Shown in pieces: positions 1 through 48,147 of a stretch of DNA of 64,000 bases; position 1 is the stretch's first letter; each line of letters opens with the position of its first letter. The translations under genes were made by a program, and so were the position numbers. The notes under the pieces are model-generated. The model searched no databases. It was not told the origin of the DNA and saw only the letters and a list, made by a program, of their open reading frames with translations. The stretch lies in contig CAZSRD010000005.1 of the NCBI GenBank assembly GCA_964609455.1, forward strand, positions 4,878-68,877, read 5' to 3'. The DNA comes from an uncultured Methanosarcinales archaeon. Lineage in GTDB: Archaea > Nanobdellota > Nanobdellia > Woesearchaeales > JACPBV01.

Positions 1-40
1 CGGCTATATGCAAATTCTGCTTAAAAGAATATTTAGAGCA

Positions 41-111
41 ATATAAGTTTATGTAGTGGTTAACTTAGGGTAATATTTACAGATACCGACTAGAAATGTA
101 GTGGTTAACTT
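41..111. repeat. 16-bp direct repeat ATGTAGTGGTTAACTT x2, at 41-56 and 96-111; contains a GTTAAC palindrome
   Basis: Two identical copies visible in the first 120 nt, upstream of the MNT gene. Confidence 0.5.
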
Positions 112-350
112 CTTAAACTTTCAGCAGCAATCTCTTCACTTTTTTATCTATGCCCTTTACTTTGACTTCTTTTATTGATTCTCTTATGTTCTCTTCTGCC
201 TTTATTTATTGCATTTTTTAATATGTGCTGCACATGCACATTTTAGAATGTAGAATATTAAAAAACAGATGTTCCTTAATCACTTATTAGCCAATAAAAA
301 TAAAAAGATTTATATATCAAATATATAATATTATATATTGACTATACAAT

Positions 351-977
351 ATGAAACCTTACAAAGATACAGAAAACAAGATATTGGGAAACTTACTAAG
401 ACAGCCCCTGAAAAGCAAAAGTTTGCATCAGATTGCATTGGATACTGCGTTAACTTATGTAACTGTGCATAAAATAATACCTATCTTATTAAAAAGAAAA
501 TTAATAAAATTAGAAAAAAAAGGAAAGGCGAATCTTATCAGCATAGACTTTGAAAATTCCAGGATAGAGGATTTAAGCTCAGCCATATTGCATGAAAAAG
601 CTAAATTAATGAAAAAATACCCTCAAATTGCCATCTTAATAAGGGATATAGGGGAAGAACTGGCAGGAAAGCTCTATATACTGCTTTTTTTTGGCTCTTA
701 CGCTAAGGAAAATCCAAGAAAGGACTCTGATGTAGATTTGCTTTTTATTATTCAAGAAAGAAAAGATATTGAAGCTTATAAAGAGAAAATTAATAAAGCC
801 TTGAAGTTATCAACATTAAAAAAGGATTTTAATATAGTTACAACAAATGATTTCATAGATATGCTAAACCAGAAATATTCAGTTGGCAGAGGGGCTTTTG
901 AACAAGGAATTGTTCTTTTTGGAACAGAACCTTATTATGTTATGGTGAAAGAGCATGTTACAAAAAGAGGATATTGA
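351..977 (+). CDS. minimal nucleotidyltransferase (MNT) protein with an N-terminal winged-helix-like region
   Basis: Motif GSYAKENPRKDSDVDLLF matches the GS...DxD polymerase-beta/MNT signature. The ORF overlaps the following gene by 23 nt. Confidence 0.6.
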   Translation: MKPYKDTENKILGNLLRQPLKSKSLHQIALDTALTYVTVHKIIPILLKRKLIKLEKKGKANLISIDFENSRIEDLSSAILHEKAKLMKKYPQIAILIRDIGEELAGKLYILLFFGSYAKENPRKDSDVDLLFIIQERKDIEAYKEKINKALKLSTLKKDFNIVTTNDFIDMLNQKYSVGRGAFEQGIVLFGTEPYYVMVKEHVTKRGY

Positions 978-1566
978 AGAAGCTAAGAAACTCTTTAAAG
1001 AGTGGGACAATAAGCATATTTGGGATGCTCCTGAGCCTGCTTTTTTGGACCATACAAAGAAAAAAGCACAAGATTCTTTAAATTTGGCATTATACCTTTT
1101 AGATAAGGTTGAGCAGACAGAAGAACTTGAAGGCAACGATACAGTTACTATCTGGATTATTGCTGCAAGCTATTATTCAATGTTTTTTCAAGTTGAATAC
1201 TTATTGGGATTGGATGGAAAAAAGCTCCCAAGAGGAACAAAAGATACCCATAAAACAATTTATCTCGCTTTTATCTATTATTACATTGTTAAAGGCTCTG
1301 AACTAGAACAGAAAAAGCCCAAAGAGATAACAACGAGCAGAATGTCAAAAGCTTTGGCAATGTTTAAGGAATTGCAGGATGAAACTCTTGAGCTTCATAG
1401 AATAGAGAAAAGCGCTAAGGATTTGAAAAAACAAAAAGAACAACGGCACGAGTTTACTTATCAAATGAACAGGACAGCAGAAGTTTCTGAAGCAAAAAAC
1501 AGCACTATCAAAGCAACGCAATTTAGGGAATTAATTGAAGAGTATATAATGGCAAAGCAAGGGTAA
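955..1566 (+). CDS. putative HEPN-like partner of the MNT protein (toxin-antitoxin-like pair)
   Basis: Overlaps the MNT ORF in the usual MNT-HEPN order. Contains an R-x5-H candidate (RGTKDTH). Helical with a coiled-coil C-terminal tail. Confidence 0.35.
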   Translation: MLQKEDIEEAKKLFKEWDNKHIWDAPEPAFLDHTKKKAQDSLNLALYLLDKVEQTEELEGNDTVTIWIIAASYYSMFFQVEYLLGLDGKKLPRGTKDTHKTIYLAFIYYYIVKGSELEQKKPKEITTSRMSKALAMFKELQDETLELHRIEKSAKDLKKQKEQRHEFTYQMNRTAEVSEAKNSTIKATQFRELIEEYIMAKQG

Positions 1567-1737
1567 AGAATGAAAGTTTATGCTGCAGGGGGCCATGGGC
1601 TAGAGCATAATTCAATGCCCGGCTTTTTGCAGGATATCTCTTTTTTGAAAATTTGCAGGCCACTTATACGGCTTAGAATGGATAATGAGAAAATAAAAAT
1701 ACTAAAGTTTAAATACTAGCTTTACAAAAAATGGATT

Positions 1738-2019
1738 ATGGCAACGCTGAGAAGAAGGCCTAATGCTTTTGAAACAATCTTACTAATTATTGGGATTGCT
1801 TTGATAGTAGTTGGTTACATAGCTATACACCGAATGGTTGTTTTTGAAGGTGCGCTTTCTTGGGATCTTCTTCAGACAACTTTCTTATGGCTTTTGATGA
1901 TTCTAATGGTTATATTGGCAGCTGTTAACGAAAACATGAAGGAAGAGCTGAAGATTGTCATTCTGAACCAGGCAGAAGAGATAAGGCTTTTAAGGGAAGA
2001 TTTTAAGAAGAAGAGATAA
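1738..2019 (+). CDS. small membrane protein with two predicted transmembrane helices
   Basis: Hydrophobic segments LLIIGIALIVVGYIAI and LWLLMILMVILAAV. Confidence 0.3.
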   Translation: MATLRRRPNAFETILLIIGIALIVVGYIAIHRMVVFEGALSWDLLQTTFLWLLMILMVILAAVNENMKEELKIVILNQAEEIRLLREDFKKKR

Positions 2020-2068
2020 TTCTTAGAAAAGGTTTATATACCATCTTTAATTCTTATTAGGATAATTT

Positions 2069-5000
2069 ATGGTTGGGGGGTTAAAGATTAAGAAAATATT
2101 AAGATTACTTTCTATTTTTGTAGTCATCTTCATAGTTTCTTTTTCTCTTGTATATGCATTAGGGGACACTAGGTCAAACTTTTTAAATATGGTACCCTTA
2201 CGTGAAAAACGCGAAATTAATACTTATGAACTTATAAAAAATTTTAACACATTGTATATATTAGATGAATATAACTCATTGCAAGCCCCTAGTGGATATT
2301 TATGGGTGGTTGATTCTCATTTAGGTAATAATAAGTTACTTAAAATAAACCCCTTAGATGGTAGTATAGAGGCCAGTTTTGATATAATTAGTAGCCCAAG
2401 TTTAATAGGTCTCGCTTTTGATGGAAATAATCTTTGGATATCTGATTCTAATAATAATAAGATATATAAATATTCTAGGGCGGGTTTATTACTAAATACA
2501 TATGATTGTCCGTCCCCTTGTCGTTATCCTTATGGCCTTACATGGGATGGAAATAACTTATGGGTTGCAGCAGAAACTTCTACTTATAGGGATTATAAAT
2601 TATTTAAACTATCTTCTGATTTAGGGAGTATACTTACTTCTATTGATATTCCTGTAGAATATCCTTGGGATCCTGAAGGACTAACTTGGGATGGTTCCTA
2701 CCTTTTATATACTGAAGACTCATTTAATGGTTATCTAAGAAAAGTTACGCCGTTAGGACAGATATATTCTAGGATTTATAGTGAATATGATATTTTTGGC
2801 CTTGCTTTTGATGGGCAAAACCCTTGGGTTTCTTTATGGGGTTCAAGTTCTCAACCAGCTTATATTGGGAAACTAGGTGCAGATTATAGGTTAAGTTTTG
2901 CTAAAGAATACCCGGGGATTCTACCTAGAGATTCTGCTTGGGAATCTACGTCGGTTTGTGATTGTGGCTCTTGGTCAAACCAAGGTTGCGGTCAGGGAGG
3001 TTGTGCAGCAGACAAAATGTATCAGACAAGAACATGCAATCCATCTGGTTGTGATACACAATCTCAATGTGTTAGTGATGCAAGTTGTAATCCGCAATGC
3101 TCAGGTACAGACACTTCATGCGGCACTTACCCTAGTTGTACAAACTGCAACTCCAATGATGGCTGCAATGGTGATTCCTATAGGAATTATTATTGTGTAA
3201 GTAATGCTGCTGGATGTAGCTATACATCTGATAACTGTAATGACTGCTCATGCACATGCGGCGGGTATAACACAGCAGAAACAACTGCAAATGGAAATTG
3301 CGGCGATGGAAAAGATAATGACTGTGATGGAGATACTGATGGAGCTGATTCTGGTTGCGCAACATGCTCAGGTACAGACACTTCATGCGGCACTTACCCT
3401 AACTGTTTGAATTGTAATTCTTATGATACCTGCTCAGGAAATTATTATTACAACTATTACTGTTCCGGAACTTCCTGTACTTATTCTTCTGACAGCTGCA
3501 CTGACTGCTCATGCACATGCGGCGGGTATAACACAGCAGAAACAACTGCAAATGGAAATTGCGGCGATGGAAAAGATAATGACTGTGATGGAGATACTGA
3601 TGGAGCTGATTCTGGTTGCCAATCATGTGAATGCAGTTCTGAAGTATGTTGTGATGGCTGCCATTATAAACCTTCAGGAAGCCAGCCAACAGGATATACT
3701 GATGATTCAAATGGGTTCTGTGATGGCTCTAATTCTCCAACAGGAACAAATTATGTAAAGACAAGGGATTATTACTGCGATGGGGTTGACGCAGGTTTAC
3801 ATTATTTAGATACTATAGTTGATACATGCAGTACTTGTGAATACTGCACAAATAATGACTTAACATGCAATTATTATACTTCTTCTACTGTTTGCGGTTC
3901 GCAGGATTGCGACTACCTTGATACAATATGCAGGGACTATATTGATATGAATATGTATTGCAGCGGAAGCAGCAGTACCTGTAGTGCTTTTTGTTCTTCT
4001 TATACAAATGCTCCTGCCGGAACTTCATGTGGGGCTAGTCAGGAATGCGATGGTAATGGAAATTGCATTCAGGTAAGCCATTGCAATAATGGTGTAAAAG
4101 ACTATGATGAGTTAGGTATAGACTGCGGCGGAAGCTGTTCAAATCACGATTGTTGTGAGAACAATTATGAAGATTCTAATCTAGGTGAAGATGGTGTTGA
4201 TTGTGGTGGAGTTTGCCATTATAGTTGTGTTGTCCCAGTTATTTTGGTTCATGGTTATCTTAGCACCTCTGCTTCTTTATCAAATTTTGAGAATTGGTTG
4301 AGGGCAGATGGCTTCGCAGTTTATAATGTTGATTATGCACAGGGTTCTGCTTTTGCTAATGGGGATATTACTGATTACGCAAAAGTCCTATGTAAAGAAA
4401 TAGACCGAATTAGGAGAGTTGAAAAAGTAAATTATGTGGATATAGTTGCTCACTCAATGGGGGGCCTGGTAGCGAGGGAGTGCTTATTGCATTATGAAAC
4501 ACAAAAGGGAGTAAGGAAACTAATAATGTTGGGAACACCAAATCATGGCACTAATGCATTCGAGTCAAGTAAATATTTCACAACCTATATTGTCTCAATA
4601 TTTGATATAGGCCGTGGCTATTTGCAAGATGTTGCTTTATTGAATAGTATATTGGGGGTTGCAAGAAATCAAATGAGAGTATGCTCCCCATTTTTGAATC
4701 ACCTTAATTTTGGCGGAGATGTTGATAAAAGCAAGTGTGAATATCCTGAGAAGAGCACAGATATTTTAGTTAATGAGGTGGAGTATGATAATTTGGCAGG
4801 AGTTGTTGGATTGAGTTCCTTATTTCATCTTAAAAATAATGATATGTTAGTTAGTGTTGTTAGTGCTTATCTGGATGGAGCTTATAGAAATAATCCTGCG
4901 TATGGGTATGACCACTTTAAACTTGTTAAAGAAACAGAAACTTACCAGTGGGTGAAATCTGTCCTGGATGAAGAAGTAGTTGGTTCTTTAAGTAAGCTAA

Positions 5001-7576
5001 GCTTAAATTCAGATAAGATGGTTGCCCTAACAGAAGCAGGGCCTTCTGAAGAGGATTACCAGGAATTGCCTGAAATCAATGGGACAATCTATCCTGGTCA
5101 GATAAAGAACCATAGCATTAGCGTTGATTCTGCGCAGGAAATTATGTTTTCATTAGTTAGTTTTGCAGAGAATGTTAGCTTTTATTTGATTGACCCTAAT
5201 GGATTGAAAGTTGATGAAACATATTGTATAAGCAATAACCAGTGCAATTATTCTTTTTTTAGCGGTATTCATGGTTATGACATTTTAGGGCCCGTCACTG
5301 GGAATTGGAGCCTTATTATCGAAGCTGTAAATGTGAATGAAAGCGGCGATGATTATGCTATACTTACCAGTTTAATAACCGATCTTCACTTATCCCCAAC
5401 TACTCAAATAGTCCGATATAGGCTTAACGAACAGATGAACATAACAGCAAATCTTACAAAAAATGGAGATGCAGTTCTTGAAGCTGTATTGACAGCTAAA
5501 ATTCACAGGTCAGATGGTGTTGAAAGTTTGCTTGACCTATACGATGATGGGATACATAATGATAATTCAGCTAATGATGGAGTCTATGGAAATGCTTATA
5601 CAGATACGGATGAATATGGTGCTTATGATTTAGACATTACTGCCAAAGGCAGTTATAACGGAAACTTGTTTAGCAGGGCAGCACAATTTACTCTCTGGGT
5701 AGAAGACTATCCAGACTTGCTTGTTAAAACTATTTCTTTTTCTAATTCTACTCCAGTAGAAGATGAAAATGTTGTAATCTCTACTTTAATTGGTAATATT
5801 GGCGAAAAAGAAGCCATAAACGCCACAATAGAATTTTACCATTCGACTAAATATGAAGATGAGTTTATTGGCGAAGCCAATGTTAGCTTAGGTATTGGAG
5901 AAGAAGGCATTGCATCTGTTAATTGGACAAATATTACTGCGGGAGAATATAATGTTACTGTTTTGGTTTCTCCTTTTAATTCGTTTTTGGAGAGCGATTA
6001 TTCGAATAATAGGCTGGGAAAAAATATTACTATCCGAAGCAAATATTCGTTTAATATAAAAGTTTTTTCTCCAATCAATAAAATATACTATACAAATTCT
6101 ATTGATTTAAATTGGACTCTTAATCAAAGTGTTAGCTGGTGTGGATATAGTATAGACAGCAAAGAAGATGTAAGTATTCTTAGGAATGATGTGTTTTGTT
6201 GGGGTAGTAATTCCCATGGTGGATCTGATCCTTATAATGGGGGAAATGCAGTTCAGGTAGATTCTGGATGGGGGAATAATTGCGTTCTAAAATCAAACGG
6301 CAATGTACAATGCTGGGGGTATAGTAAATATGGTGAGTCAGATCCTTACAATGGCGGAGATGCAATCCAAGTATCTGCTGGTTATTATCATACTTGCGTT
6401 CTAAAATCAAACGGCAATGTACAATGCTGGGGGTATAGTAAATATGGTGAGTCAGATCCTTACAATGGCGGAGATGCAATCCAAGTATCTGCTGGTTATT
6501 ATCATACTTGTGTCCTTAAATCAAACGGCAATGTACAATGCTGGGGGTATAATGAGGATGGTAGAGCTGATCCCTACAATGGAGGAAATGCAATTCAAGT
6601 TTCTGCTGGTGTTTCTCATACTTGCATTCTAAAATCAGGTGGCAATGTAAAATGCTGGGGATTAAATGACCAAGGTCAAGTAATCTCCTATAATTTGGGA
6701 AATGCAATTCAAGTCTCTGCTGGTGCTTCTCATACTTGCATTCTAAAATCAGGTGGCAATGTAAAATGTTGGGGATTAAATGACCAAGGTCAATCAGAAC
6801 CTTATAATGGTGGAGACGCAATACAATTATCTGCTGGTGTTTGGCATAATTGTGTTCTTAAATCAAATGGGAATGTTCATTGTTGGGGAGATAATTATAG
6901 TGGTAAATCTACAGATTATAATGACGGAGACGCAACCCAGATATCTGTTAATTGTTGTAATACTTGTGCTATGATACATTCTGAAGGCAATTTAACTCTT
7001 AAGGATTTGCAACAAGGCGTACATAGCCTAGTTGTTTCTTGTAATGCTACCCTGGGTAGGATTGGTAAATCTAAGGATATCTTTTTTTTAGTAGCAACTA
7101 AAATCTATAATCTTACTTTAAGTGAGAATTGGAACTTGATTTCGCTACCAATAAGCTTATCAGATAATTCAGTAAACTCAGTATTCAGCAATATCAAATC
7201 AATCTTTACTTATGCTCCTTGGCTTTATTATTTCAACGAAACTAATAACAACTTCAATACAATCGATGAAACAAAGGCTTATTGGGTCAATTCGCTGGAA
7301 AACCAGACATTGACAATTGAGGGAATGGAGTTTGAGTATCCTATTTTCTTTAACCTGACTGAAGGGTGGAACCTAATTGCTTACCCTTCTTTGAATGTTA
7401 GTTTGATCAATGAAAGTTTGAAAGATGTTGAGTATGGGTCTATCTTGACATATAAAGATGATAACTGGCATTCTGGATTTGGTTTAGAGAATCTGACGCC
7501 CTGGCAGGGTTATTGGGTTAAGGTTCCTGCTAATGTTACTTGGGGCTTTGACGGCAGTGTTTTCAAAGAATCTTAG
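2069..7576 (+). CDS. giant secreted surface protein: signal peptide, beta-propeller-like repeats, Cys-rich tandem repeats, Lipase_2-like alpha/beta hydrolase, CARDB-like domain, RCC1-like repeats, shared C-terminal module
   Basis: N-terminal hydrophobic signal. NNLWISD/NNLWVAAE/GLTWDG blades. PVILVHGY plus DIVAHSMGG (GxSxG) as in Bacillus LipA. DLLVKTISFSNSTPVEDENV is CARDB-like. Seven repeats of CWG..G.....HTC.LKS.GNV.CWG. C-terminus GWNLIAYPSLN...WQGYWVKV. Confidence 0.85.
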   Translation: MVGGLKIKKILRLLSIFVVIFIVSFSLVYALGDTRSNFLNMVPLREKREINTYELIKNFNTLYILDEYNSLQAPSGYLWVVDSHLGNNKLLKINPLDGSIEASFDIISSPSLIGLAFDGNNLWISDSNNNKIYKYSRAGLLLNTYDCPSPCRYPYGLTWDGNNLWVAAETSTYRDYKLFKLSSDLGSILTSIDIPVEYPWDPEGLTWDGSYLLYTEDSFNGYLRKVTPLGQIYSRIYSEYDIFGLAFDGQNPWVSLWGSSSQPAYIGKLGADYRLSFAKEYPGILPRDSAWESTSVCDCGSWSNQGCGQGGCAADKMYQTRTCNPSGCDTQSQCVSDASCNPQCSGTDTSCGTYPSCTNCNSNDGCNGDSYRNYYCVSNAAGCSYTSDNCNDCSCTCGGYNTAETTANGNCGDGKDNDCDGDTDGADSGCATCSGTDTSCGTYPNCLNCNSYDTCSGNYYYNYYCSGTSCTYSSDSCTDCSCTCGGYNTAETTANGNCGDGKDNDCDGDTDGADSGCQSCECSSEVCCDGCHYKPSGSQPTGYTDDSNGFCDGSNSPTGTNYVKTRDYYCDGVDAGLHYLDTIVDTCSTCEYCTNNDLTCNYYTSSTVCGSQDCDYLDTICRDYIDMNMYCSGSSSTCSAFCSSYTNAPAGTSCGASQECDGNGNCIQVSHCNNGVKDYDELGIDCGGSCSNHDCCENNYEDSNLGEDGVDCGGVCHYSCVVPVILVHGYLSTSASLSNFENWLRADGFAVYNVDYAQGSAFANGDITDYAKVLCKEIDRIRRVEKVNYVDIVAHSMGGLVARECLLHYETQKGVRKLIMLGTPNHGTNAFESSKYFTTYIVSIFDIGRGYLQDVALLNSILGVARNQMRVCSPFLNHLNFGGDVDKSKCEYPEKSTDILVNEVEYDNLAGVVGLSSLFHLKNNDMLVSVVSAYLDGAYRNNPAYGYDHFKLVKETETYQWVKSVLDEEVVGSLSKLSLNSDKMVALTEAGPSEEDYQELPEINGTIYPGQIKNHSISVDSAQEIMFSLVSFAENVSFYLIDPNGLKVDETYCISNNQCNYSFFSGIHGYDILGPVTGNWSLIIEAVNVNESGDDYAILTSLITDLHLSPTTQIVRYRLNEQMNITANLTKNGDAVLEAVLTAKIHRSDGVESLLDLYDDGIHNDNSANDGVYGNAYTDTDEYGAYDLDITAKGSYNGNLFSRAAQFTLWVEDYPDLLVKTISFSNSTPVEDENVVISTLIGNIGEKEAINATIEFYHSTKYEDEFIGEANVSLGIGEEGIASVNWTNITAGEYNVTVLVSPFNSFLESDYSNNRLGKNITIRSKYSFNIKVFSPINKIYYTNSIDLNWTLNQSVSWCGYSIDSKEDVSILRNDVFCWGSNSHGGSDPYNGGNAVQVDSGWGNNCVLKSNGNVQCWGYSKYGESDPYNGGDAIQVSAGYYHTCVLKSNGNVQCWGYSKYGESDPYNGGDAIQVSAGYYHTCVLKSNGNVQCWGYNEDGRADPYNGGNAIQVSAGVSHTCILKSGGNVKCWGLNDQGQVISYNLGNAIQVSAGASHTCILKSGGNVKCWGLNDQGQSEPYNGGDAIQLSAGVWHNCVLKSNGNVHCWGDNYSGKSTDYNDGDATQISVNCCNTCAMIHSEGNLTLKDLQQGVHSLVVSCNATLGRIGKSKDIFFLVATKIYNLTLSENWNLISLPISLSDNSVNSVFSNIKSIFTYAPWLYYFNETNNNFNTIDETKAYWVNSLENQTLTIEGMEFEYPIFFNLTEGWNLIAYPSLNVSLINESLKDVEYGSILTYKDDNWHSGFGLENLTPWQGYWVKVPANVTWGFDGSVFKES
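3098..3619 (+). repeat. in-frame tandem duplication, 2 x about 261 bp, encoding an 87-aa Cys-rich unit; the 117-bp cores 3242-3358 and 3503-3619 are identical
   Basis: CSGTDTSCGTYP...CSCTCGGYNTAETTANGNCGDGKDNDCDGDTDGADSGC occurs twice. The repeat also explains the spurious overlapping ORFs in both strands here. Confidence 0.8.
6180..6960 (+). repeat. RCC1-like tandem repeats with a 120-bp period; two copies are nearly identical at DNA level (6301-6420 and 6421-6540)
   Basis: Repeated tgctgggggtatagtaaatatggtgagtcagatccttacaatggcggagatgcaatccaagtatctgctggttattatcatacttg. Confidence 0.8.
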
Positions 7577-16353: not shown

Positions 16354-17121
16354 ATGCCACAACAACCACAGCAACAAATGAGCGAAGAGCAGATTAAGGA
16401 GCTGCAGGAAAAGGTTAAAAATATGTCTCCTGAAGAGCTTAAGGAGTTTCAGAAAAAGCAATGCATCTTCTGCCAAATCATTTCCGGAAAGGTTCAGTCA
16501 AGAAAGGTTTATGAGGATGATAAAAGCATTGCCATAATGGATATTAATCCTGCTAATCCAGGCCATGTTCTTCTTTTGCCAAAGGAGCATTATGCTATAA
16601 TGCCCCAGGTTCCGCCAGATGATCTTGCGCATCTTTTTATTGTTACAAAAACAATTTCTAATGCTTGTTTAAGGGCTTTGCAGGTTCAGGGCACGAATAT
16701 TATTGTGCAGAACGGCATTGCTGCCGGCCAAAAAGCGCAGCACTTTATGATTCATATAATTCCCAGAAAAGAGGATGACGGAATCAATTTTGAACTGCCC
16801 CAGAAGAAAATTTCTGAAAAACAGCTAGACACACTACAGGAGAAGCTTAGGTCTAAGCTAGGCGGTGTTATTGTACCCAATAGTTCGAGCGAAGCTCGAA
16901 CTAAGGAAACTAAGGCAATTGTTCAGCAGCCGGTTAAGCCAAAGGTCGTGGAGGCAGAATTTACCGTACCAAGTTCAGACATAGCCAAAACTAAGGAAGA
17001 AAATAAAGAAACAAAACCAGCTAAGAAAGAGCCTGTGAAAAATGAAGCAGGAAAAAAGAAATCAGCTAAGAAAAATGAAGTAAGCTTGGATGATATTGCT
17101 AATGTTTTAGGTGTGAAATGA
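16354..17121 (+). CDS. HIT-family protein with a degenerate histidine triad and a Lys/Glu-rich C-terminal tail
   Basis: CIFCQIISGKV...NPGHVLLLPKEH...AQHFMIHIIPR. The second His of HxHxH is Met. Confidence 0.7.
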   Translation: MPQQPQQQMSEEQIKELQEKVKNMSPEELKEFQKKQCIFCQIISGKVQSRKVYEDDKSIAIMDINPANPGHVLLLPKEHYAIMPQVPPDDLAHLFIVTKTISNACLRALQVQGTNIIVQNGIAAGQKAQHFMIHIIPRKEDDGINFELPQKKISEKQLDTLQEKLRSKLGGVIVPNSSSEARTKETKAIVQQPVKPKVVEAEFTVPSSDIAKTKEENKETKPAKKEPVKNEAGKKKSAKKNEVSLDDIANVLGVK

Positions 17122-17651
17122 ACGAACAATGCATCATATGCCAGATAATAGATGGAAAAGTTCCATCAAAGAAAATTTATGAAGATGACGAGATAGTTGC
17201 GCTTCTTGATTTTAATGGAGCTAACCCAGGGCATAGTTTTGTAATGCCAAAACAGCACTTTCCAATATTGGAGCAGATACCAGCAAAATTGATTGGCAAA
17301 TTGTTTAATGCCGCTAACAGGGTAAGCTCTGCTATTTTTGAAGCATTAGGCGTCCAGGGCACGAATATTTTTGTTGCAAATGGCATTTCTGCTGGGCAGA
17401 AAGTTGCGCACTTTATGATAAATGTTGTTCCAAGGACGGAGAATGATGGAATAAATATGCAATGGCAGCCAAGGCAGTTAGATGAAGAAGAGATGTCAAC
17501 GATAGAATTGAAGTTAAAAGAGGAGATTGGCAATGTTGGCATTGGAGAAGCGCCAGCTAAAAGCATGCAGCCTAAGAAGGCAGAGCTCATTCCTGAGAAG
17601 ATTTCTGGAGAAGAAAGTTACCTGGTTAAGCAGTTGAGGAGAATTCCTTAA
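17118..17651 (+). CDS. HIT-family paralog with a degenerate histidine triad
   Basis: CIICQIIDGKV...NPGHSFVMPKQH...AHFMINVVPR (H-phi-M-phi-N). Start overlaps the preceding stop (ATGA). Confidence 0.65.
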   Translation: MNEQCIICQIIDGKVPSKKIYEDDEIVALLDFNGANPGHSFVMPKQHFPILEQIPAKLIGKLFNAANRVSSAIFEALGVQGTNIFVANGISAGQKVAHFMINVVPRTENDGINMQWQPRQLDEEEMSTIELKLKEEIGNVGIGEAPAKSMQPKKAELIPEKISGEESYLVKQLRRIP

Positions 17652-29018: not shown

Positions 29019-29816
29019 ATGAAAAACAAAAAAATTTCAAAAAAAGACCTTATTCAAGAAGTACATAATCTGGAACTTACATTACATAGGAGGCCAGTTA
29101 AAAGGGATAACGCAACATTATACAAAAATTCTAGAGAGTTTTTTGGTTCTTGGAATAAGATGTTATTTTCAGCAGGATACTCTGTTCAATTTTTACAAAA
29201 AATAGGTTCATATACATTTAATCATAATTTTGCATATTTTTTAGGATTATTAATCACTGATGGGCATATTGCTTATGATAAAAGACGAGAAAACTACAAA
29301 GTGGCCATCTATACTAGTTATCCAGACGAAAGAGATATGTTAGTAAAACTAATCAGGCATATATTTGAGTATAATGCACGTATTAGCAAGAAGAAGGCAG
29401 GGTATAATGTGAAATTTAATTTTGAAGTTAGGATAAATTCTAAAAAGCTTGCTGAGGATTTAATTGATGATTATTGTATTCCTTCAGGTAAAAAATCTTT
29501 AAACGTTCGTTTACCAAATTTCTTATTTAATACACAAATAAGGTGTAAGGAATCTTTTTTAAGGGGGGTTATTGATGGTGATGGTTCTATTACAAAGAGG
29601 GGAATAAAAATTGTATCTGGTTCTACACTTTTCCTTAAAGATTTGAAACATTTTTTATTCACTTTAAAAATTCACACTGGTAGTATTATAAAGGAGCACG
29701 ATAGAAATACTTATTCAATTAGGATTAATAAGAAAGAAGATTGGATTAAAATTAAACGAATTTACTCTTTTGGATATTTCTATAAGCGAAAGAGAGAAAG
29801 TATCAATAAGATTTAA
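29019..29816 (+). CDS. free-standing double-motif LAGLIDADG homing-endonuclease-like protein
   Basis: Two LAGLIDADG motifs: FAYFLGLLITDGHIAYD and FLRGVIDGDGSITK. Confidence 0.75.
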   Translation: MKNKKISKKDLIQEVHNLELTLHRRPVKRDNATLYKNSREFFGSWNKMLFSAGYSVQFLQKIGSYTFNHNFAYFLGLLITDGHIAYDKRRENYKVAIYTSYPDERDMLVKLIRHIFEYNARISKKKAGYNVKFNFEVRINSKKLAEDLIDDYCIPSGKKSLNVRLPNFLFNTQIRCKESFLRGVIDGDGSITKRGIKIVSGSTLFLKDLKHFLFTLKIHTGSIIKEHDRNTYSIRINKKEDWIKIKRIYSFGYFYKRKRESINKI

Positions 29817-30287: not shown

Positions 30288-30452
30288 AATTTAGTGAATT
30301 ACCTATCAAAAAACGATAGATTTAAATATAATGAGGAAATTCAACGCATAATGGCAGTTAATCTTTCTTTAGTTGAAATGCTATGATATTGAGCGTTATA
30401 TAATTATAAGAGGAAGAACTGCCTTTGCAATATAAAACAAAGCAGATATGGT

Positions 30453-30541
30453 GCCCTGGTGGTGTAGTGGCCTATCATGAAGCCCTGTCGATGCTATAGA
30501 AGCAGAACGGCTTCGACCCGAGTTCGAATCTCGGCCGGGGC
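30453..30541 (+). tRNA. tRNA-Asp(GTC) with an intron of about 17 nt in the anticodon loop
   Basis: GCCCTGGTGGTGTAGTGGCCTATCATG-AAGCC-CTGTC-G[ATGCTATAGAAGCAGAA]C-GGCTT. T-arm CCGAG-TTCGAAT-CTCGG. Acceptor 3' strand CCGGGGC. Closely matches archaeal tRNA-Asp. Confidence 0.8.
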
Positions 30542-30544
30542 GTA

Positions 30545-30657
30545 GGGCCCGTAGCTCAGCCTGGTTAGAGCGCCTCACTTTTAATGAGGTGGCCGCGCGT
30601 TCGAACAGCAGGTCAGCCAAAGGTTGATCACGACGCTCTGAAAATCGCGTCGGGCCC
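30545..30657 (+). tRNA. tRNA-Lys(TTT) with a non-canonical intron of about 39 nt in the T-loop
   Basis: GGGCCCG-TA-GCTC-AGCCTGGTTA-GAGC-G-CCTCA-CTTTTAA-TGAGG-TGGCC-GCGCG-TTCGAA[39 nt]T-CGCGT-CGGGCCC-A. Starts 3 nt after tRNA-Asp. Confidence 0.7.
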
Positions 30658-40015: not shown

Positions 40016-40858
40016 ATGTCGATTTTAGATAGGATATATTATGGATTAGCAGATGTTGGCAGGACAGTTGCATTTACAGGTATTTTTGGAGCTGCTGTTC
40101 TAGGTGGCCATGTTCCTTCTTATGTTTATTCTGCTGAGCCACCTGCTAAAATAGAGCCAGATAAACTTTCTATTGATGAATTGGTGTCTCGCGCTGAGAA
40201 AAATTGCGAGCAAGCCAGAAATGCTAAAGAAAACCAGAAAGAATTGTATGGGAAGGTTCTTGAGGATTCAGTAAAAGTAGCAAAGCTAATAAAAGGGGGT
40301 AAAGAAAAACCTTCTCCTGAAGATATGCCCTCATTCTATTTCGCTTGCAAACTTCAAGCAGAGGCCTTATACTCTCTCAAAAAATATGACCAGGAGTTGA
40401 GCGTTCTAGATGAGCTTATCAATTTAATGGAGGGTAAGGGAAAAGATAAACTAAGCGGAGAAGATTTAAGCTTATTAGCAGATGCCTACATGCCTAAAGG
40501 GGATGCTTTTAGGAAGTTAAAGAATTATAAAGGGGCTGTTGAAGCATTTAAGACAGCTTTTGAACTTTTGCAAAAGAGATTAAATGCAGAAAAGGAATAT
40601 GAAGGCAGGAAGTATGATGGAGAGAGCTTAGTTTATGTAAAGTCTCGATGGATTGAGGCCAAATATTTTGGAGAACTGGTTCCTATGTATAAAGAGCTGC
40701 ATAAGTTGAAAAAAGGAACACCGGAAGCAGAAGCTAAAGCTAAGGAAGCACTTGAAAAATGCGATGAAATATTAAAGATTGGTGAAGGCTCTGATGATAG
40801 ATTATTAAAGAGTGTAGAGCTAATTAAAAAGACAGCGAAAGATATTCTAGGTAAATAG
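40016..40858 (+). CDS. hypothetical membrane-anchored helical protein
   Basis: N-terminal hydrophobic segment, then a TPR or coiled-coil-like helical region. Confidence 0.35.
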   Translation: MSILDRIYYGLADVGRTVAFTGIFGAAVLGGHVPSYVYSAEPPAKIEPDKLSIDELVSRAEKNCEQARNAKENQKELYGKVLEDSVKVAKLIKGGKEKPSPEDMPSFYFACKLQAEALYSLKKYDQELSVLDELINLMEGKGKDKLSGEDLSLLADAYMPKGDAFRKLKNYKGAVEAFKTAFELLQKRLNAEKEYEGRKYDGESLVYVKSRWIEAKYFGELVPMYKELHKLKKGTPEAEAKAKEALEKCDEILKIGEGSDDRLLKSVELIKKTAKDILGK

Positions 40859-40969: not shown

Positions 40970-42865
40970 TTATCCCACATTCCTTACTTTCTCACCAAAT
41001 ATAAATATATATTTCCAGGCAAATCCCTGCTTTCTCTTTACTTGCACCTTAAAACCAGCTCTGTAAAAAATATCTATTATTTTTTTGTCATCGCTTAACC
41101 AATCTTTATTTGGGATAATATCAAAAAATTTATCATAATCCACAAAGCATATTTTAGAGCCTTTTTTGAGTCTTTTGTTCATGTGTTTTAATACTGCATG
41201 GATATCTTTGACATACCCTATTGTCCCTACTGAAACTGCTGTATGGAGCAATGGAACGTCTGGGTGCACTCTGCTATGGTGCTGCAGGTCATGAATGACC
41301 TTAACATGGGTATGGCCTTTTTTATCTAAACGCCGCTGAGTTATTTCAAGGTCTTTTTCTGAAATATCAGTAGCGTATACTTTTCCTTTTGGCCCTACTT
41401 CTTCTGCCAGATGCATTGTTAATGTGCCTACAGAGCATCCGAACTCCAGCACTATTTTTCCCTTTATATTTCCCAGCAATCTAATTATCTCTTTTCTGAC
41501 ACTTAATGGCAAGGCTAACCTTTCAGTCCATAAGACCAGATATGCTAAGAGGTTATTTGTTTTTCTAATTGCTTTTGGATTGTAGTAAAGCTCTAGCAGA
41601 AAGTATACTGGCGCTCCCAAAATTATTAATGAGACAGATAAAGCAATCAATTTTACTGCTTCTGCTTCTAATATAACCCACATAATCAATAAGGAGATCA
41701 TGACCAGTATCGTAATTATTGGGCCGACTTTGCCAAATGGGGCTTTGAAATGCCTTTTTAGTTCAGGCTTTTTAAATCTTAATACGACCAATGCCAACAA
41801 TACAGATATGTACATCACCAATACAAAGGGAAGCAGCATTAGAAGCAGCGTTCTATAAGCTCCAAGGCCAATTATCACTAAAAGGGAGGTTACAATTGTC
41901 TGGAAAACTATTGCTTTATGCGGTGTGTGATATTTTGGATGTATTGCTGAGAATTGTGTCAGGAATAGTCTGTCCCTAGCTAATGCCAATAATAATCTTG
42001 GCGCAGCAACTATCCAACTGGCGACTGCGCCGATAATTGCTAAATATATCCATAATGTAAATATGCTTCTTCCGATATTACCGAAATGTAGAGCACCAAG
42101 GTCGGATAATGGAGCAACGGATTTTGAGAATGTCTGCCAGGGTATGTTTCCAATAGATGTTATTACAAACAATAATGAAATTATGGATATACATATTGTT
42201 CCGATAATTAATGCTTTTGGCATTACCTTTTCCGGGTCTTTGGTTTCTTCTGCTAAGAATGTAGCTGACTCCCAACCAAAAAACGTTTCTTGTATGAAAT
42301 ATAATGTTATGAAAATAGCTGATGTTGGAAAAACCCAGAATGGCACAAAATTTTGAGGTTGTAGTTTGAATAATCCCGGGATTATCAATGAAAACACTGC
42401 TGATATAGCTATTATTGAAAAAGTAGCCAGCATGAAGGATGATGTTTTCATTCCCCTGTAAGCTATGCAGTTGAATGCCAAAATGAAAAATAAAGATAGC
42501 GCAGCTTTTTGCAAAGGCAAGTTATAGGGCAAGAGATATTGGATAGCGCCTACTACCAGCATAGCTATTGTTATATTCCCTGCTATGAGTGTGATCCATC
42601 CAATTATGAATGAAGTAAACCTTCCATAAGCTTGTTTTGCATATTCATAGACTCCTCCAGCTTTTGGAAACATTGAGACTAGTTCTGCAAAACACATTGA
42701 GATGTAGAGCGCTATTATAGACATTATTGCCCAGGAGATTATGGACATTGGGCCTGAGTATTTTGCGCCAACTGCTGGCAAGAAGTAGATTCCTGTGCCC
42801 ATTATTGCGTTGATTGTTATCAATAGGATAACCTTGAAGCCGAGTACCTGCTTTAGTTCTGCCAT
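40970..42865 (-). CDS. fusion protein: APC-family amino acid permease (12 TM) plus a C-terminal class I SAM-dependent methyltransferase
   Basis: N-terminal 430 aa is polytopic and typical of amino-acid transporters. C-terminal IVLEFGCSVGTLTMHLAEEVGPKGKVYATDISEKDL is MTase motif I, with further downstream MTase-like sequence. Confidence 0.7.
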   Translation of the reverse strand: MAELKQVLGFKVILLITINAIMGTGIYFLPAVGAKYSGPMSIISWAIMSIIALYISMCFAELVSMFPKAGGVYEYAKQAYGRFTSFIIGWITLIAGNITIAMLVVGAIQYLLPYNLPLQKAALSLFFILAFNCIAYRGMKTSSFMLATFSIIAISAVFSLIIPGLFKLQPQNFVPFWVFPTSAIFITLYFIQETFFGWESATFLAEETKDPEKVMPKALIIGTICISIISLLFVITSIGNIPWQTFSKSVAPLSDLGALHFGNIGRSIFTLWIYLAIIGAVASWIVAAPRLLLALARDRLFLTQFSAIHPKYHTPHKAIVFQTIVTSLLVIIGLGAYRTLLLMLLPFVLVMYISVLLALVVLRFKKPELKRHFKAPFGKVGPIITILVMISLLIMWVILEAEAVKLIALSVSLIILGAPVYFLLELYYNPKAIRKTNNLLAYLVLWTERLALPLSVRKEIIRLLGNIKGKIVLEFGCSVGTLTMHLAEEVGPKGKVYATDISEKDLEITQRRLDKKGHTHVKVIHDLQHHSRVHPDVPLLHTAVSVGTIGYVKDIHAVLKHMNKRLKKGSKICFVDYDKFFDIIPNKDWLSDDKKIIDIFYRAGFKVQVKRKQGFAWKYIFIFGEKVRNVG

Positions 42866-42947
42866 AGGCTGAATTTTATGTTTATTATTTATAAAATGTT
42901 CGTTTTTAGGAAAGACTTAAAAATAGATTATTATTTGCAGTACTAAT

Positions 42948-43562
42948 ATGGAAACATTGTTTATTGAGGCTAAATACGATAAGCCAATAAAGATTGGCAA
43001 AATAGCAGATAGATTGGAAGGCATAATTGGTCTAGTGAGCTCAATACAATTTTTGGAAGGCTTATCATTAATTAAGAAACAGTTGAAAAAAGCTGTTATT
43101 GGCGGTCAGATTTTAGGCTGTGATGTGAGTAACGCTTTGAAGATAAACAATAAGGTTGATTCGTTCTTATATATTGGTGATGGCAGTTTTCATCCATTGA
43201 AGGTTGCTTTAGAAACAAAGAAAGAAGTTTTTACATTTAACCCTTTTAGTAAAACTTTTGGTAAGATTGATAAGAAAGATGTTGAAAATTATAAAAAAAG
43301 GAAAAAAGGCGCTTTGCTGAAGTTTTTATCTGCTGATAATGTAGGTATATTGGTTTCAACAAAACCAGGTCAATATTATGATATTAAGAAGTTAAGTTTT
43401 TTAGAGAAAAAATATCCTAAGAAGAAATTTTACACATTTATTGCAGAAACAATTGATTATAGCCAATTAGAGAATTTTCCTTTTATACGAGCTTGGGTCA
43501 ATACTGCTTGCCCCAGGATTGATGAGGATATTTCTGTGGTTAATGTTGAAGAGATAAAATGA
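42948..43562 (+). CDS. N-terminally truncated Dph2-like protein (domains 2-3 only)
   Basis: GDGSFHPLKVALETKKEVFTFNPFSK and QLENFPFIRAWVNTACPRIDED align with archaeal Dph2 [26 protein letters not shown] and KLEGFPFEAYVVVACPRVPLDD. The first-domain Cys is absent. Confidence 0.4.
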   Translation: METLFIEAKYDKPIKIGKIADRLEGIIGLVSSIQFLEGLSLIKKQLKKAVIGGQILGCDVSNALKINNKVDSFLYIGDGSFHPLKVALETKKEVFTFNPFSKTFGKIDKKDVENYKKRKKGALLKFLSADNVGILVSTKPGQYYDIKKLSFLEKKYPKKKFYTFIAETIDYSQLENFPFIRAWVNTACPRIDEDISVVNVEEIK

Positions 43563-44747: not shown

Positions 44748-47700
44748 TTACTTCTTTCGGATATATAACCAGACGATTAAAGCAATAAGAGCAAGCATTA
44801 GGAAAAGCAATATAGTCTTTCCTTCATTTAATACACCCATTATTGTTTTTCCTGTTATGATAAAGAAACCATGTTCACTTTTTTCTACTCCTCCTCCCTC
44901 AATTTCAGTTATAGCTGGAGTTGTTTGTTCAATCTCTTCTGTTTGCCCTTCAACAACTTCCCCTGATTGACTTATTGTAAAATCCTGTTCTGTTGCGGAG
45001 ATTGCAAAAACAGAAAATCCAGGAGTGTAAGAAATATAATATGCGCTTTCATTTGTCTCTAGGTAACTGATTGTATCTAACTTATTCCATCCTTTGTTGT
45101 ACCTGTACATAGAAATTTGTCCTTTGGTAATGCCCTTGTCTTTTAACCATTGATTTTTTACTTTAAACCTTATTTCTACTGGTTGTGAAAGGTCACTTTC
45201 ATTTAGGTTTTCTGCTCCTAACTCCAGATATTGGTAAGCAGTTCCAGATATCTTAGGGTGCGATTGACTTTCATTTAAAACTTTAACATTGATCCTTACT
45301 TTGTCTAATCTTTTGTTAACCTTAAATCCTATTCTGTTGACTGCTATGTTTGGAGAGTTAATTGCCATTAATGGTGTTAGTGTCTCTGTTACCAAGACAA
45401 AGAACCTTGAAGCTTCGTTTGGGCTTTTTGCTGAAGTTCCCCCTCCACCGCCCCCTCCGCCACCACCACTACCCCCACCACCTCCTCCGCCGTCATTGTT
45501 ATTTGGCGCTGTATAGGTTAAGGACGCATTAACATAATTATTTGAATAGTCTATATTTAAATTTTTATTATCTGCATCGTCTAATGTGGTTACAACAAAA
45601 TGGTACGTTCCTGAGCTTGTCACAGATATTGAAGTTCTATTTGTGGAAACAGTTGCTGCGCTATATCCTACTATTGATTCATTTGCTAAGCTTTTGGATG
45701 AATTGAAATTTGCCCCATAATAGGCAACGTAACGGAGATTTTGGAAGTCTGAATTGCCACTTATATCTGTACTTACATTAACCCATGTTAATGTGGCAGT
45801 ATCTCCTGATGCAGATACCTGCAGGCTTGTTACTTTGTTCGGGGTTATTGTGTCATTTGCAGTACTCCCTAATGAGTTTGACATTACAGAATCATTATAA
45901 TTGCCGTATGAGTCAACGGTGACAAGAGCATACCAATAAGTTGTCCCGTGAGTTGTGGTGGTATCTTCGTAAAATTGCGTTCCTTCGGCAACCCCTGTTG
46001 TTATGTTTACTATAGAGATGTTTATTAAATTTATTTGGCTGCTGAACCTGTAGAGCCTGTATGTTTCTCCTGTTTCATTGCCGTCATCATTCCATACAAT
46101 TTCTATATTGCCGTCTGAGTCAGAATCTGAAACAGATGTTAGTGTTGGGTGTGTTGTAGGAGCTAATGTGCCTGTATAGGTGATATTGGTTGAGTTATAC
46201 CATATACTCCACTTATAGCCGTCATTAACCCTGATTGAGAATAGCCAAACTTCACCTTCTGATAAATTGCCAGAGCTTATTGTTGTTAAATTATCTAAAC
46301 CAGGCACATATTTGCTGTTATTGAACCATCTTGTTTCGTTAAATGTATTTGGGTCATTATCAACATCAGAATAATCAAACCTAGCTACTAAATCATTACC
46401 AGATATTACACTTGCATTTTCAACTGTTGGTGGTGTGTTTTCTACTGTGAAGCTCCATTCATCTGTCATATTTATGTTATTGTTTGTATCATTGCAGTAG
46501 AATTTCCACGATATAACTTTACTTCGTGTTGAGGTTACGACTTTGTAAATGCTTATTGGGTAAAACGTTACAATTGGCGTTGTGTTTGTGGTGTTAACCC
46601 AAGAGCCAGTATCATTCCATGAAAACACATAAGCTGACAGCCCAATAGCGTCATTGCAGGTTATATTGAATTGGATTACATCATTATTTTTTGGAGATGT
46701 ATTGTTAGTTGCGTTGTTTGACCATGTTGGGGGAATAGTGTCTAATGAAGCAAGAGCTGCAAAAATATCTATTCTTGAAAAATTATAACCACTCCCCCCA
46801 GAATCACCAATAATTTTGCCTGTATTATTTAATGTCCTTTTTATTTGGTTAGGTGTTAAAGTAGTTCCATTCTCTAACTTTTTAAACTGAAATAATAAAG
46901 CTACTGCCCCCGCAACATGCGGCGTTGACATTGATGTTCCATCCAGTTCTTGGGTGGCATCATTTGGGTATGTTGAGGTTATATCTACGCCAGGCGCCAA
47001 TAATTCAAAGAGAGCCCCCCCTTTGATAAGTTATAGAATCTGCATCATTTACTGCTCCAACTGCTGTGGCATTCTCTACACATGCAGGGGAAGAAGGGCC
47101 TGCCGTACAAGATTGGCCTGGACATTGGGCTTGATTGCAGTTACCCGCCGCTATTGTAACAACAATACCCTGACCTACCGCAGTATTAATGGATGAAGCC
47201 TCGCTATCAGTATTGCAGTAAGTAGTATGATTAGAGCAATCCCCTAAACTCAGGGTAATGACTGAAATATTAAATTTTGAAGCATTATTAGTGCACCAAT
47301 CAATTCCTGCAATTATATCATCACTCCATCCTGATCCTGTAGAATCCAAAACTTTGACTGCAATTATTTTGGCGTCTGGCGCAACCCCCTTATATATGCT
47401 GTTAGTAGAAGCAACTATTCCTGTGACATGTGTCCCATGACCATGGTCATCAAAGCAAGCACTATTATTCAAACTACATTCCTCTGTGTCAGCCCCCTGA
47501 TTCAGCGACCTATACCCCCCAATAACCTTATTCCCCCAACCACCACCTAGATCAGAATGATTATAATCAACGCCAGTATCAATCACACAAACTGTTTCAC
47601 CCACACCAGTTATATTTGTTCCGTTAAGAACTATGCCCCATGAACTATTTGCCTTAATAAGTGGTGCACTATTATCTAGAGTTGCATAAACCCGTTTGTT

Positions 47701-48147
47701 AAGTTGTATGCTCTTTACGTTAGAATCATCCACCAATTTTTCAAGGCCATGTTTAGTTATTTTTCCAGAGAATCCATTTACAGTAGAATATTTATGCTTC
47801 AATTTAAAATCCACATTATCTATATCAAAAAATGAACTATTTTTAGTTTGTTTTTTATAGTCTTCCATATTTAACTTTGAAAGAACCCTCTCTTGCTGTT
47901 CCCCCACCATTAGTTTTTTCTGTTCTAAGCCAGCTTTTTTTGCTTCATTAACCTGCATAAATGGAGCATCTGTTTGTGATATAAGTTCAGGCTCGTCTTT
48001 TAACATTACAATTACGGAAGCCTCCCCTTTATCTTCCAACTCCCCTCCAATTAAAGGGTCTACTCTTTCCGCATAAATTAGTTTTGTAGCTATTAACAAG
48101 AATACTAAAATCAAAAACCCCTTTTTTATTCTATTACTACAGCACAT
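44748..48147 (-). pseudogene. subtilisin-like S8 protease with a C-terminal transmembrane anchor, split by a +1 frameshift in a G7 homopolymer (C7 on the plus strand at 47015-47021)
   Basis: Upstream fragment 47005-48147 has VIDTGVDYNHSDL (Asp) and HGHGTHVTGIVAS (His). Downstream fragment 44748-47000 begins APGVDITS...GTSMSTPHVAG (Ser). Removing one G fuses the frames. A poly-Gly linker and a C-terminal TM helix follow. Confidence 0.7.

Follow-up and report, generated by a model that had tools for sequence, protein, structure and literature searches.

A widespread archaeal fusion of an APC-fold permease with a class I SAM-dependent methyltransferase

What is achieved by encoding an amino acid carrier and a methyltransferase in one open reading frame (ORF)? 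The question is raised by a gene in a 64,000-nucleotide stretch of an archaeal contig (CAZSRD010000005.1 of GenBank assembly GCA_964609455.1, positions 4,878 to 68,877; placed in the Woesearchaeales by GTDB), the whole of which is called the window here. An original prediction made from this DNA had described a single ORF of 631 amino acids joining an APC-type transporter with 12 transmembrane helices (TM1 to TM12) to a class I methyltransferase dependent on S-adenosylmethionine (SAM), and had proposed that import of a substrate, perhaps an amino acid or polyamine, is thereby coupled to its methylation. We find the ORF uninterrupted and exactly as claimed, spanning both domains, and the protein is best classed as a known carrier fold and a known enzyme fold combined in a lineage-specific, widespread, uncharacterized fusion. 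The gene and its three parts are these:

40970 to 42865, minus strand: permease-methyltransferase fusion gene, ATG start, 631 amino acids, stop codon at 40970-40972 (ORF listing)
41582 to 42865, minus strand: residues 1-428, APC-fold (LeuT-type) amino acid/amine permease domain with 12 transmembrane helices (Pfam, PDB matches, Foldseek)
41471 to 41581, minus strand: residues 429-465, junction and helical linker (NPKAIRK...LLG; alignment and AlphaFold model)
40973 to 41470, minus strand: residues 466-631, class I (Rossmann, seven-strand) SAM-dependent methyltransferase core (Pfam, AlphaFold, Foldseek)

Two adjacent genes merged through a sequencing or assembly error would give the same appearance, an explanation that we consider close to inconceivable. 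The exact 631-residue protein is present on eight contigs from at least four independent samples or assemblies, each time as one ORF without a frameshift or stop codon between the domains. Both sets of Pfam domains occur in all 120 of the best database homologues (55-100% identity, 581-657 amino acids). With the linker and methyltransferase part alone as a probe, relatives were found in at least 241 GTDB species genomes, and among the best 80 loci, which we examined, 73 hold an intact single-ORF fusion (47-81% identity), six break off at the end of a contig, and the remaining one (L021) is a shortened stub. Orthologous fusions in related archaea are thus abundant. The residues at the junction (P419, Y421, L423, Y427, P430, A441, E448, P453, R457, and G465) are near-invariant, and GC content is even over the two halves of the gene (0.38 and 0.36). 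Taken together, these observations show a fusion maintained by selection and rule out the artifact, for which we found no support, although the stub indicates that some assemblies of the family are imperfect, as it lies beside a frameshifted neighbor. In that locus (L021, 1867-3869), an ORF of 261 amino acids comprises only TM11, TM12, and the methyltransferase, and adjoins a response-regulator gene and a Dph2-like gene split into two ORFs. Either the locus is decaying or it was poorly assembled.

The named records of the fusion belong to Candidatus Woesearchaeota, Nanoarchaeota, or Nanoarchaeia, and more distant fusions, with a canonical motif I of the form VLD(F/Y)G(C/S)G, occur in Aenigmatarchaeota. 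A methyltransferase profile searched against 1.84 billion representative proteins matched 89 clusters (50% identity) at E ≤ 1e-30 and 206 at E ≤ 1e-10; in nearly all long matches, the methyltransferase is the C terminus of a protein of 600-700 amino acids. Existing database labels read "amino acid permease" or "amino acid transporter/precorrin-6B methylase 2", and a full-text literature search found no paper on a permease-methyltransferase architecture. The fusion had been called unusual in the original prediction. This description holds in that neither a paper nor a named subfamily accounts for it, but not within the one lineage where it is common. A candidate bacterial occurrence in locus L050 (NJBN01000005.1, "candidate division LCP-89 bacterium") was rejected because the genes are archaeal and the GC content is 33%. 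There, positions 1-7258 at the end of a 306-kb contig hold a Dph2-like gene (3923-4588), ribosomal protein L10e, and a permease-methyltransferase gene, and the locus is probably a chimeric contig, a mislabel, or a binning error. Many of the GTDB loci are titled "uncultured Methanosarcinales", titles that look like placeholders or mislabels.

Is the membrane domain a working carrier? The Pfam family AA_permease_2 matches residues 8-399 (E = 1.8e-46, 159.3 bits against a cutoff of 27, profile positions 1-404 of 427) and AA_permease matches residues 13-421 (E = 1.2e-32, 113.7 bits against a cutoff of 24.6). Sequence matches in the PDB extend over the full length of the domain, to xCT, BasC, GkApcT, AdiC, and LAT1/2, with E values from 1e-33 to 1e-22. 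An AlphaFold model of the whole chain, built on 45 homologues, has a mean predicted local distance difference test score (pLDDT) of 86.7, a predicted template modeling score (pTM) of 0.77, and a canonical APC fold, and its membrane part superimposes in Foldseek onto AdiC, LAT1, y+LAT1, BasC, and GkApcT with TM-scores of 0.79-0.85 on the target. The 12-helix transporter of the APC type was therefore correctly recognized from the sequence, as judged by Pfam, end-to-end alignment with 12-helix carriers, and the structural model. Two motifs are central to substrate binding in such carriers:

42791 to 42799, minus strand: TM1 motif G23-T24-G25, with G23 and G25 invariant in the clade
42269 to 42289, minus strand: TM6 motif E193-T-F-F-G-W-E199 (alignment of homologues)

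In APC carriers, the unwound G-x-G segment of TM1 binds the alpha-carboxylate of the substrate, and the unwound segment of TM6 binds its alpha-amino group. Conservation within the protein's own clade was assessed over 119 sequences at 55% identity or more, in which G23-x-G25 of TM1, F195-F-G-W-E199 of TM6, K140, and W284 are invariant or near-invariant. Over sets of 45-119 homologues, GxG, FFGWE, and K140 are invariant or held by the majority, and they align with GkApcT, xCT, and BasC; K140 aligns with K191 of GkApcT, and W284 lies at the position of AdiC W293 and GkApcT M321. Like the solved carriers AdiC, BasC, LAT1/2, y+LAT1, xCT, GkApcT, and ApcT, the domain has the 12-helix LeuT-type fold (TM-scores 0.76-0.85) and aligns with them from end to end at approximately 21-24% identity, sharing TM1 GxG, TM6 xGW(E/D), the lysine of TM5, and a tryptophan of TM8 at the position of AdiC W293. 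Unlike them, the fusion carries an additional C-terminal enzyme domain of 200 residues and has E193 instead of an aromatic gate. Based on the conserved motifs and the canonical modeled fold, the permease looks functional, and transport is predicted.

The nature of the carried solute can be narrowed only in outline. The invariant E193 occupies the position of the aromatic gate in solved APC carriers (F231 in GkApcT, a tyrosine in xCT), which we take to be also that of AdiC W202 and LAT1 F252, having matched these by hand from the motif register, and it is retained even in the fusions of Aenigmatarchaeota. Because an invariant glutamate stands in for the usual aromatic gate residue, alignments at 22% identity hint at a possibly cationic solute. 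Among NCBIfam subfamilies, the best-scoring is TIGR00909 (TC 2.A.3.6-type), at 208.4 bits against a cutoff of 556.8 and thus below membership, as are TIGR00905 (basic amino acid/polyamine antiporter, APA; 117.9 bits against 409) and BcaP (149 bits against 690). The "APA family" names given to some homologues by JGI are not supported at the TIGR00905 threshold.

From TM12, the chain continues through four short helices of the modeled linker into the N-terminal lid of the methyltransferase. The conserved junction, together with a pTM of 0.77 for the whole chain against 0.86 for the methyltransferase alone, hints at a defined arrangement of the two domains. Since both termini of 12-helix APC carriers are cytoplasmic, the methyltransferase is located inside the cell, where SAM is available.

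The class I methyltransferase that had been claimed for the C-terminal domain was confirmed by domain search: Methyltransf_23, Methyltransf_12, Methyltransf_31, Methyltransf_25, Methyltransf_11, and Ubie_methyltran all match residues ~456-591 above their cutoffs (E values 1e-10 to 1e-12), and the peptide quoted for it, VLEFGCSVGTLT, is motif I. An AlphaFold model of residues 436-631 (pLDDT 88.6, pTM 0.86) is a compact seven-strand Rossmann methyltransferase with alternating beta and alpha elements and a beta hairpin at the C terminus. In Foldseek, this model has more than 1300 methyltransferase matches in the PDB at E ≤ 0.001, the best being 3dh0, an uncharacterized SAM-dependent methyltransferase of Aquifex aeolicus (TM-score 0.75-0.77, 20% identity). 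Its closest structural relatives are small-molecule methyltransferases (3dh0, CouO/NovO, phosphoethanolamine N-methyltransferase, CbiT, ArsM, and Coq5). The positions of interest are the following:

41417 to 41452, minus strand: residues 472-483, motif I VLEFGCSVGTLT, the SAM-binding glycine loop (sequence alignment)
41366 to 41368, minus strand: D500, acidic residue at the end of beta2, SAM-ribose position (alignment)
41288 to 41290, minus strand: D526, acidic residue after beta3, adenine-binding position (alignment)
41099 to 41146, minus strand: residues 574-589, post-beta5 loop FVDYDKFFDIIPNKDW, the most conserved segment outside the SAM site

Within motif I, the position of E474 holds glutamate or aspartate in 119 of 119 sequences, G476 is conserved in 118 and G480 in all 119, and the position of the middle glycine usually holds serine, the other residues found there being asparagine and glycine (L-E474-F-G476-C-S-V-G480). 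At the position of D500, aspartate or glutamate is present in 96 of the 119 and asparagine or serine in 19; D526 is aspartate in 112. From these residues, SAM binding and catalysis are predicted, and the methyltransferase looks functional. Like 3dh0 and the UbiE/MenG/COQ5 group, it has a seven-strand Rossmann fold of approximately 190 residues, motif I, and the acidic residues of beta2 and beta3. Unlike 3dh0 and UbiE/MenG, it is fused to a transporter and has acceptor loops of its own, namely DYDKFF..PN..W and a histidine-rich loop between beta3 and beta4.

Assignment to a named methyltransferase family was attempted and rejected. NCBIfam scans of 18 domain sequences gave no family at cutoff and only sub-threshold matches to MenG, CbiT, BioC, RquA, and ArsM, which cover the SAM-binding core only and score 5-10-fold under their cutoffs, and Foldseek points to generic small-molecule methyltransferases. 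Membership among the quinone C-methyltransferases UbiE/MenG/COQ5 was likewise rejected: the UbiE/MenG equivalogs score 34-48 bits against cutoffs of 216-420, the likeness is confined to profile positions 35-153 of 237, and PF01209, at 41.6 bits against a cutoff of 20.1, matches only profile positions 36-156 of 233.

What, then, could the enzyme accept? The strongest conservation outside the SAM site is found at S545/G547/Y551, D576-Y-D-K-F-F..P585-N..W589, R611, and W617, and in class I methyltransferases the acceptor pocket is built by the loops that correspond to these segments. Strong conservation of the acceptor-side loops thus supports a specific substrate site. By class I topology, the post-beta5 loop is a candidate acceptor-substrate pocket. 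It is acidic and aromatic, a character that would fit an ammonium group, and residues 581-584 within it form the sole low-confidence loop of the model. It remains recognizable, as the diverged EYDNFYGFVDNEYW, in a stand-alone methyltransferase homologue and is therefore not merely an interface to the permease.

The same conservation bears on whether the domain is an enzyme at all. A methyltransferase fold that binds SAM or S-adenosylhomocysteine (SAH) without catalysis could act as a regulatory sensor, gating the carrier according to methyl-donor status, for example by trans-inhibiting the uptake of methionine or other amino acids. Eukaryotic SAMTOR is a precedent for a SAM sensor with a methyltransferase fold, and Foldseek matches the whole length of the fusion, with poor rmsd (root-mean-square deviation), to KimA with bound cyclic di-AMP and to NKCC/KCC/NCC. 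These transporters resemble the fusion in that a cytosolic alpha/beta domain, in their case regulatory and binding a nucleotide-like ligand, comes after a membrane domain of APC fold; they differ in that the rmsd is 13-16 Å and their C-terminal domains are neither methyltransferases nor catalytic. One methyltransferase module common to divergent permease paralogues would fit a shared regulatory module, some members carry a further C-terminal domain, and a CBS-domain gene follows a distant homologue. We nevertheless regard sensing as improbable, as the acceptor-side loops are conserved as strongly as the SAM-binding residues, the post-beta5 loop persists in diverged form in a stand-alone protein that has no transporter to regulate, and lineages with a degenerate motif I would be unable to sense SAM either.

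We tentatively propose instead, with confidence somewhat short of even, that the protein is a working APC carrier whose covalently attached methyltransferase is active in the cytoplasm and modifies, at the inner membrane face, the solute that the carrier moves. Residues 1-428 would form an APC-fold secondary carrier for a small solute resembling an alpha-amino acid, possibly cationic, and TM12 would pass via the conserved helical linker into the compact class I enzyme on the cytoplasmic face. The methyltransferase would be catalytically active and placed at the cytoplasmic exit of the carrier, where it would methylate the solute being moved, the methyl group probably being placed on a moiety that different solutes share, such as the amino group, either at entry of the solute or just before its outward exchange. 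The protein would thus constitute a covalently linked transport metabolon. A similar functional logic is known from the precursor/product exchange systems AdiC-AdiA, PotE-SpeF, CadB-CadA, and GadC-GadB, in which the amino acid moved by an APC carrier is modified by a cytoplasmic enzyme. There, that enzyme is a separate, operon-encoded decarboxylase, and energy is gained or acid consumed in the cycle; in the fusion, the methyltransferase is covalently attached and would consume SAM.

A further reading, which we consider unlikely, is vectorial methylation, whereby the amino group is methylated as the solute leaves the carrier, trapping the solute or generating a counter-substrate for exchange. 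Group translocation would thereby have a counterpart based on methyl transfer, used by genome-reduced, host-scavenging DPANN archaea. In the bacterial phosphotransferase system and in vectorial acylation, a transporter-attached enzyme couples modification of a solute to its passage; those systems use other folds and transfer phosphoryl or acyl groups, and they share the concept with the fusion by analogy. To our knowledge, no methyl-transfer version of group translocation exists. In a related variant, SAM itself or a sulfonium amino acid resembling it may be what the carrier delivers directly to the fused enzyme, with SAH exchanged for it.

Several considerations and natural variants weigh against methylation of the carried solute. 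The fusion and the cytoplasmic topology would be the only ties between the methyl acceptor and that solute. Spending SAM on bulk amino acids would be costly, and N-methyl amino acids would be useless for translation; therefore, any coupled substrate must be a special metabolite. The methyltransferase matches no named family at cutoff (MenG is the best, at 47 bits against 235), and its motif I is degenerate in a few lineages. The stub at L021 retains TM11, TM12, and the methyltransferase without the rest of the carrier. The other variants of importance are listed here:

P0172, P0174, P0175, P0180, P0182, P0189, P0194, P0201, P0204, P0227, P0237, and P0251, with loci L091 and L092: members of the degenerate-permease clade
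Locus L087, 5001-5588, and locus L088, 1250-1837: stand-alone methyltransferase, in two independent assemblies
Locus L083, 2154-4661 and 4693-7164: tandem three-domain genes

The degenerate-permease clade is a sister clade of about 12 representative clusters with proteins of ~600-690 amino acids. It keeps the methyltransferase, the DYDKFF..NKW loop, and, immediately before the linker, the E-x-Y-Y-N junction motif; it has lost TM1 GxG and TM6 FFGWE, and the Pfam permease match of its membrane domain is weak or absent. By sequence, this 12-helix domain looks like a "pseudo-permease". In one Woesearchaeote (GCA_018221105.1), a soluble, stand-alone methyltransferase of 195 amino acids occupies the syntenic locus beside the S7-S12-NusA-L30e-rpoA'' cluster and is 44% identical to the methyltransferase domain of the fusion, linker helices included. 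A tblastn search found no permease remnant beside it, and it is therefore not a frameshifted fusion.

The two domains also reassort. In the mosaic pair P0049/P0064, identity is 53% in the permease and rises abruptly to 84% where TM12 ends; in P0054/P0115, the pattern is reversed (permease 75%, methyltransferase 41%). In the tandem paralogues of L083, the permeases are 40% identical, the methyltransferases 62%, and the third domains 49%. Domain co-evolution was unsupported in a mirror-tree comparison, in which the correlation was weak (Pearson 0.24, Spearman 0.03) and the mosaic pairs were exposed instead. The methyltransferase is thus the more persistent module and, given the degenerate clade, the stand-alone protein, the mosaic pairs, and the tandem paralogues, is not co-adapted to one carrier specificity; any action on a carried solute should consequently recognize a common moiety, for example, the alpha-amino group. 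Judged from sequence comparison, the degenerate clade, the stand-alone methyltransferase, and mosaic evolution argue against obligatory coupling throughout the family. Coupling of import to methylation, as originally predicted, is therefore a plausible reading of the fusion, but four findings stand against its strict, one-substrate version. The three-domain variants (the L083 genes, P0122, P0127, P0132, and P0171) have 820-860 amino acids with ~200 additional C-terminal residues. This third domain is DUF3108 in P0122, and nothing was recognizable in that of the others even at E ≤ 10; a first impression of likeness to a histidine-kinase-type ATPase was unsupported and was dropped.

It is conceivable, though on balance rather doubtful, that the enzyme is simply held at the membrane and methylates some other target, for instance the head group of a lipid, a protein associated with the membrane or the ribosome, or a different metabolite at the surface of the membrane, with the permease as an anchor, a scaffold, or an independent transporter. 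This would fit the retention of methyltransferase and junction in the degenerate clade, the enzymes that persist without a carrier (the stand-alone protein and the stub with TM11 and TM12), the mosaic reassortment of the domains, and the absence of the reciprocal case, a permease without the methyltransferase, among the 120 best homologues. The invariance of the permease substrate motifs in the protein's own clade speaks against it and implies a carrier that does more there than anchor the enzyme, and a domain of 12 transmembrane helices would be a costly anchor. The nearest sequence families (UbiE/MenG, RquA, and, weakly, CMAS/CfaB) act on membrane-embedded substrates, but the likeness to UbiE/MenG extends over only the SAM-binding core and is far under the family cutoffs. 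Finally, a Dph2-like neighbor in 34 of the 80 loci keeps open a link to SAM-dependent modification, although the synteny with Dph2 and S7 may be just a stable ancestral neighborhood, from which about half of the loci depart.

The fusion gene is convergent with a gene for 280 amino acids (40016-40858), for which no annotation was possible, and divergent from the gene at 42948-43562, and it is therefore monocistronic. On the upstream side lie the following:

42866 to 42947, no strand: divergent intergenic region of 82 bp, AT-rich (sequence inspection)
42948 to 43562, plus strand: short Dph2-like radical-SAM gene, 204 amino acids, recurrent divergent neighbor of the fusion

The spacer presumably holds the promoters of both genes. 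The 204-residue Dph2-like protein (Diphthamide_syn) aligns with residues 193-329 of the Pyrococcus Dph2 chain (378 amino acids) and with residues ~94-300 of 337 in a third solved Dph2, without the N-terminal domain, which in Dph2 carries one of the three Fe-S cysteines. In the 34 loci where the gene is upstream and divergent, it lies within 700 nucleotides in approximately 25, including members 49-51% identical; S7 is downstream of the fusion in 16 of the 80. No conserved operon was found, and a homologue with 59% identity has unrelated neighbors. The radical-SAM enzyme Dph2 adds a 3-amino-3-carboxypropyl group, which is amino acid-like and later N-methylated. The pairing with the fusion may equally be an intriguing lead or a stable ancestral neighborhood beside the ribosomal and RNA polymerase cluster, and it was not used as evidence.

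The window, at 36% GC, is archaeal core DNA with genes for RNA polymerase B and A subunits, L30e, NusA-KH, S12, S7, EF-2, and EF-1alpha. It holds several further genes of interest. At 44748-48147 on the minus strand, a subtilase (Peptidase_S8) is divided over two adjoining ORFs in different frames: 47005-48147 carries an I9 inhibitor domain and S8 profile positions 3-187, and 44748-47000 carries S8 positions 207-273 followed by Asn/Thr-rich repeats, a poly-Gly run, and a C-terminal transmembrane helix. An independent assembly (L001) has the gene divided in the same way, and the split could reflect a frameshift, a pseudogene, or recoding. The ORF at 2069-7576 (plus strand) encodes an unusual giant surface-type protein of 1835 amino acids with an alpha/beta-hydrolase region (palmitoyl-thioesterase/PGAP1-like), CARDB, and six RCC1 repeats. 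A free-standing ORF resembling LAGLIDADG/HNH-repeat homing endonucleases (29019-29816, plus strand) lies just upstream of a tRNA-Asp/tRNA-Lys pair (30452-30619) and the RNA polymerase B genes; the tRNA-Asp is 92 nucleotides long according to ARAGORN and may contain an intron. Two HIT-domain (DcpS-like) genes at 16354-17121 and 17118-17651 (plus strand) are adjacent and overlap.

In conclusion, we report here a permease-methyltransferase fusion that, with at least 241 species-level genomes, is among the more widespread lineage-specific membrane proteins of Woesearchaeota/Nanoarchaeota. With their minimal genomes, DPANN archaea rely on the import of building blocks, and transporters are therefore central to their life on hosts. 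The natural variants, comprising the degenerate-permease clade, the stand-alone methyltransferase, and the three-domain forms, provide ready comparisons between the readings considered here. Action of the enzyme on the carried solute would make the fusion the first instance of methyl transfer linked to transport; a SAM-sensing domain would represent a new way of regulating an APC carrier; and if another membrane-proximal target is methylated, these archaea would possess an unknown modification.

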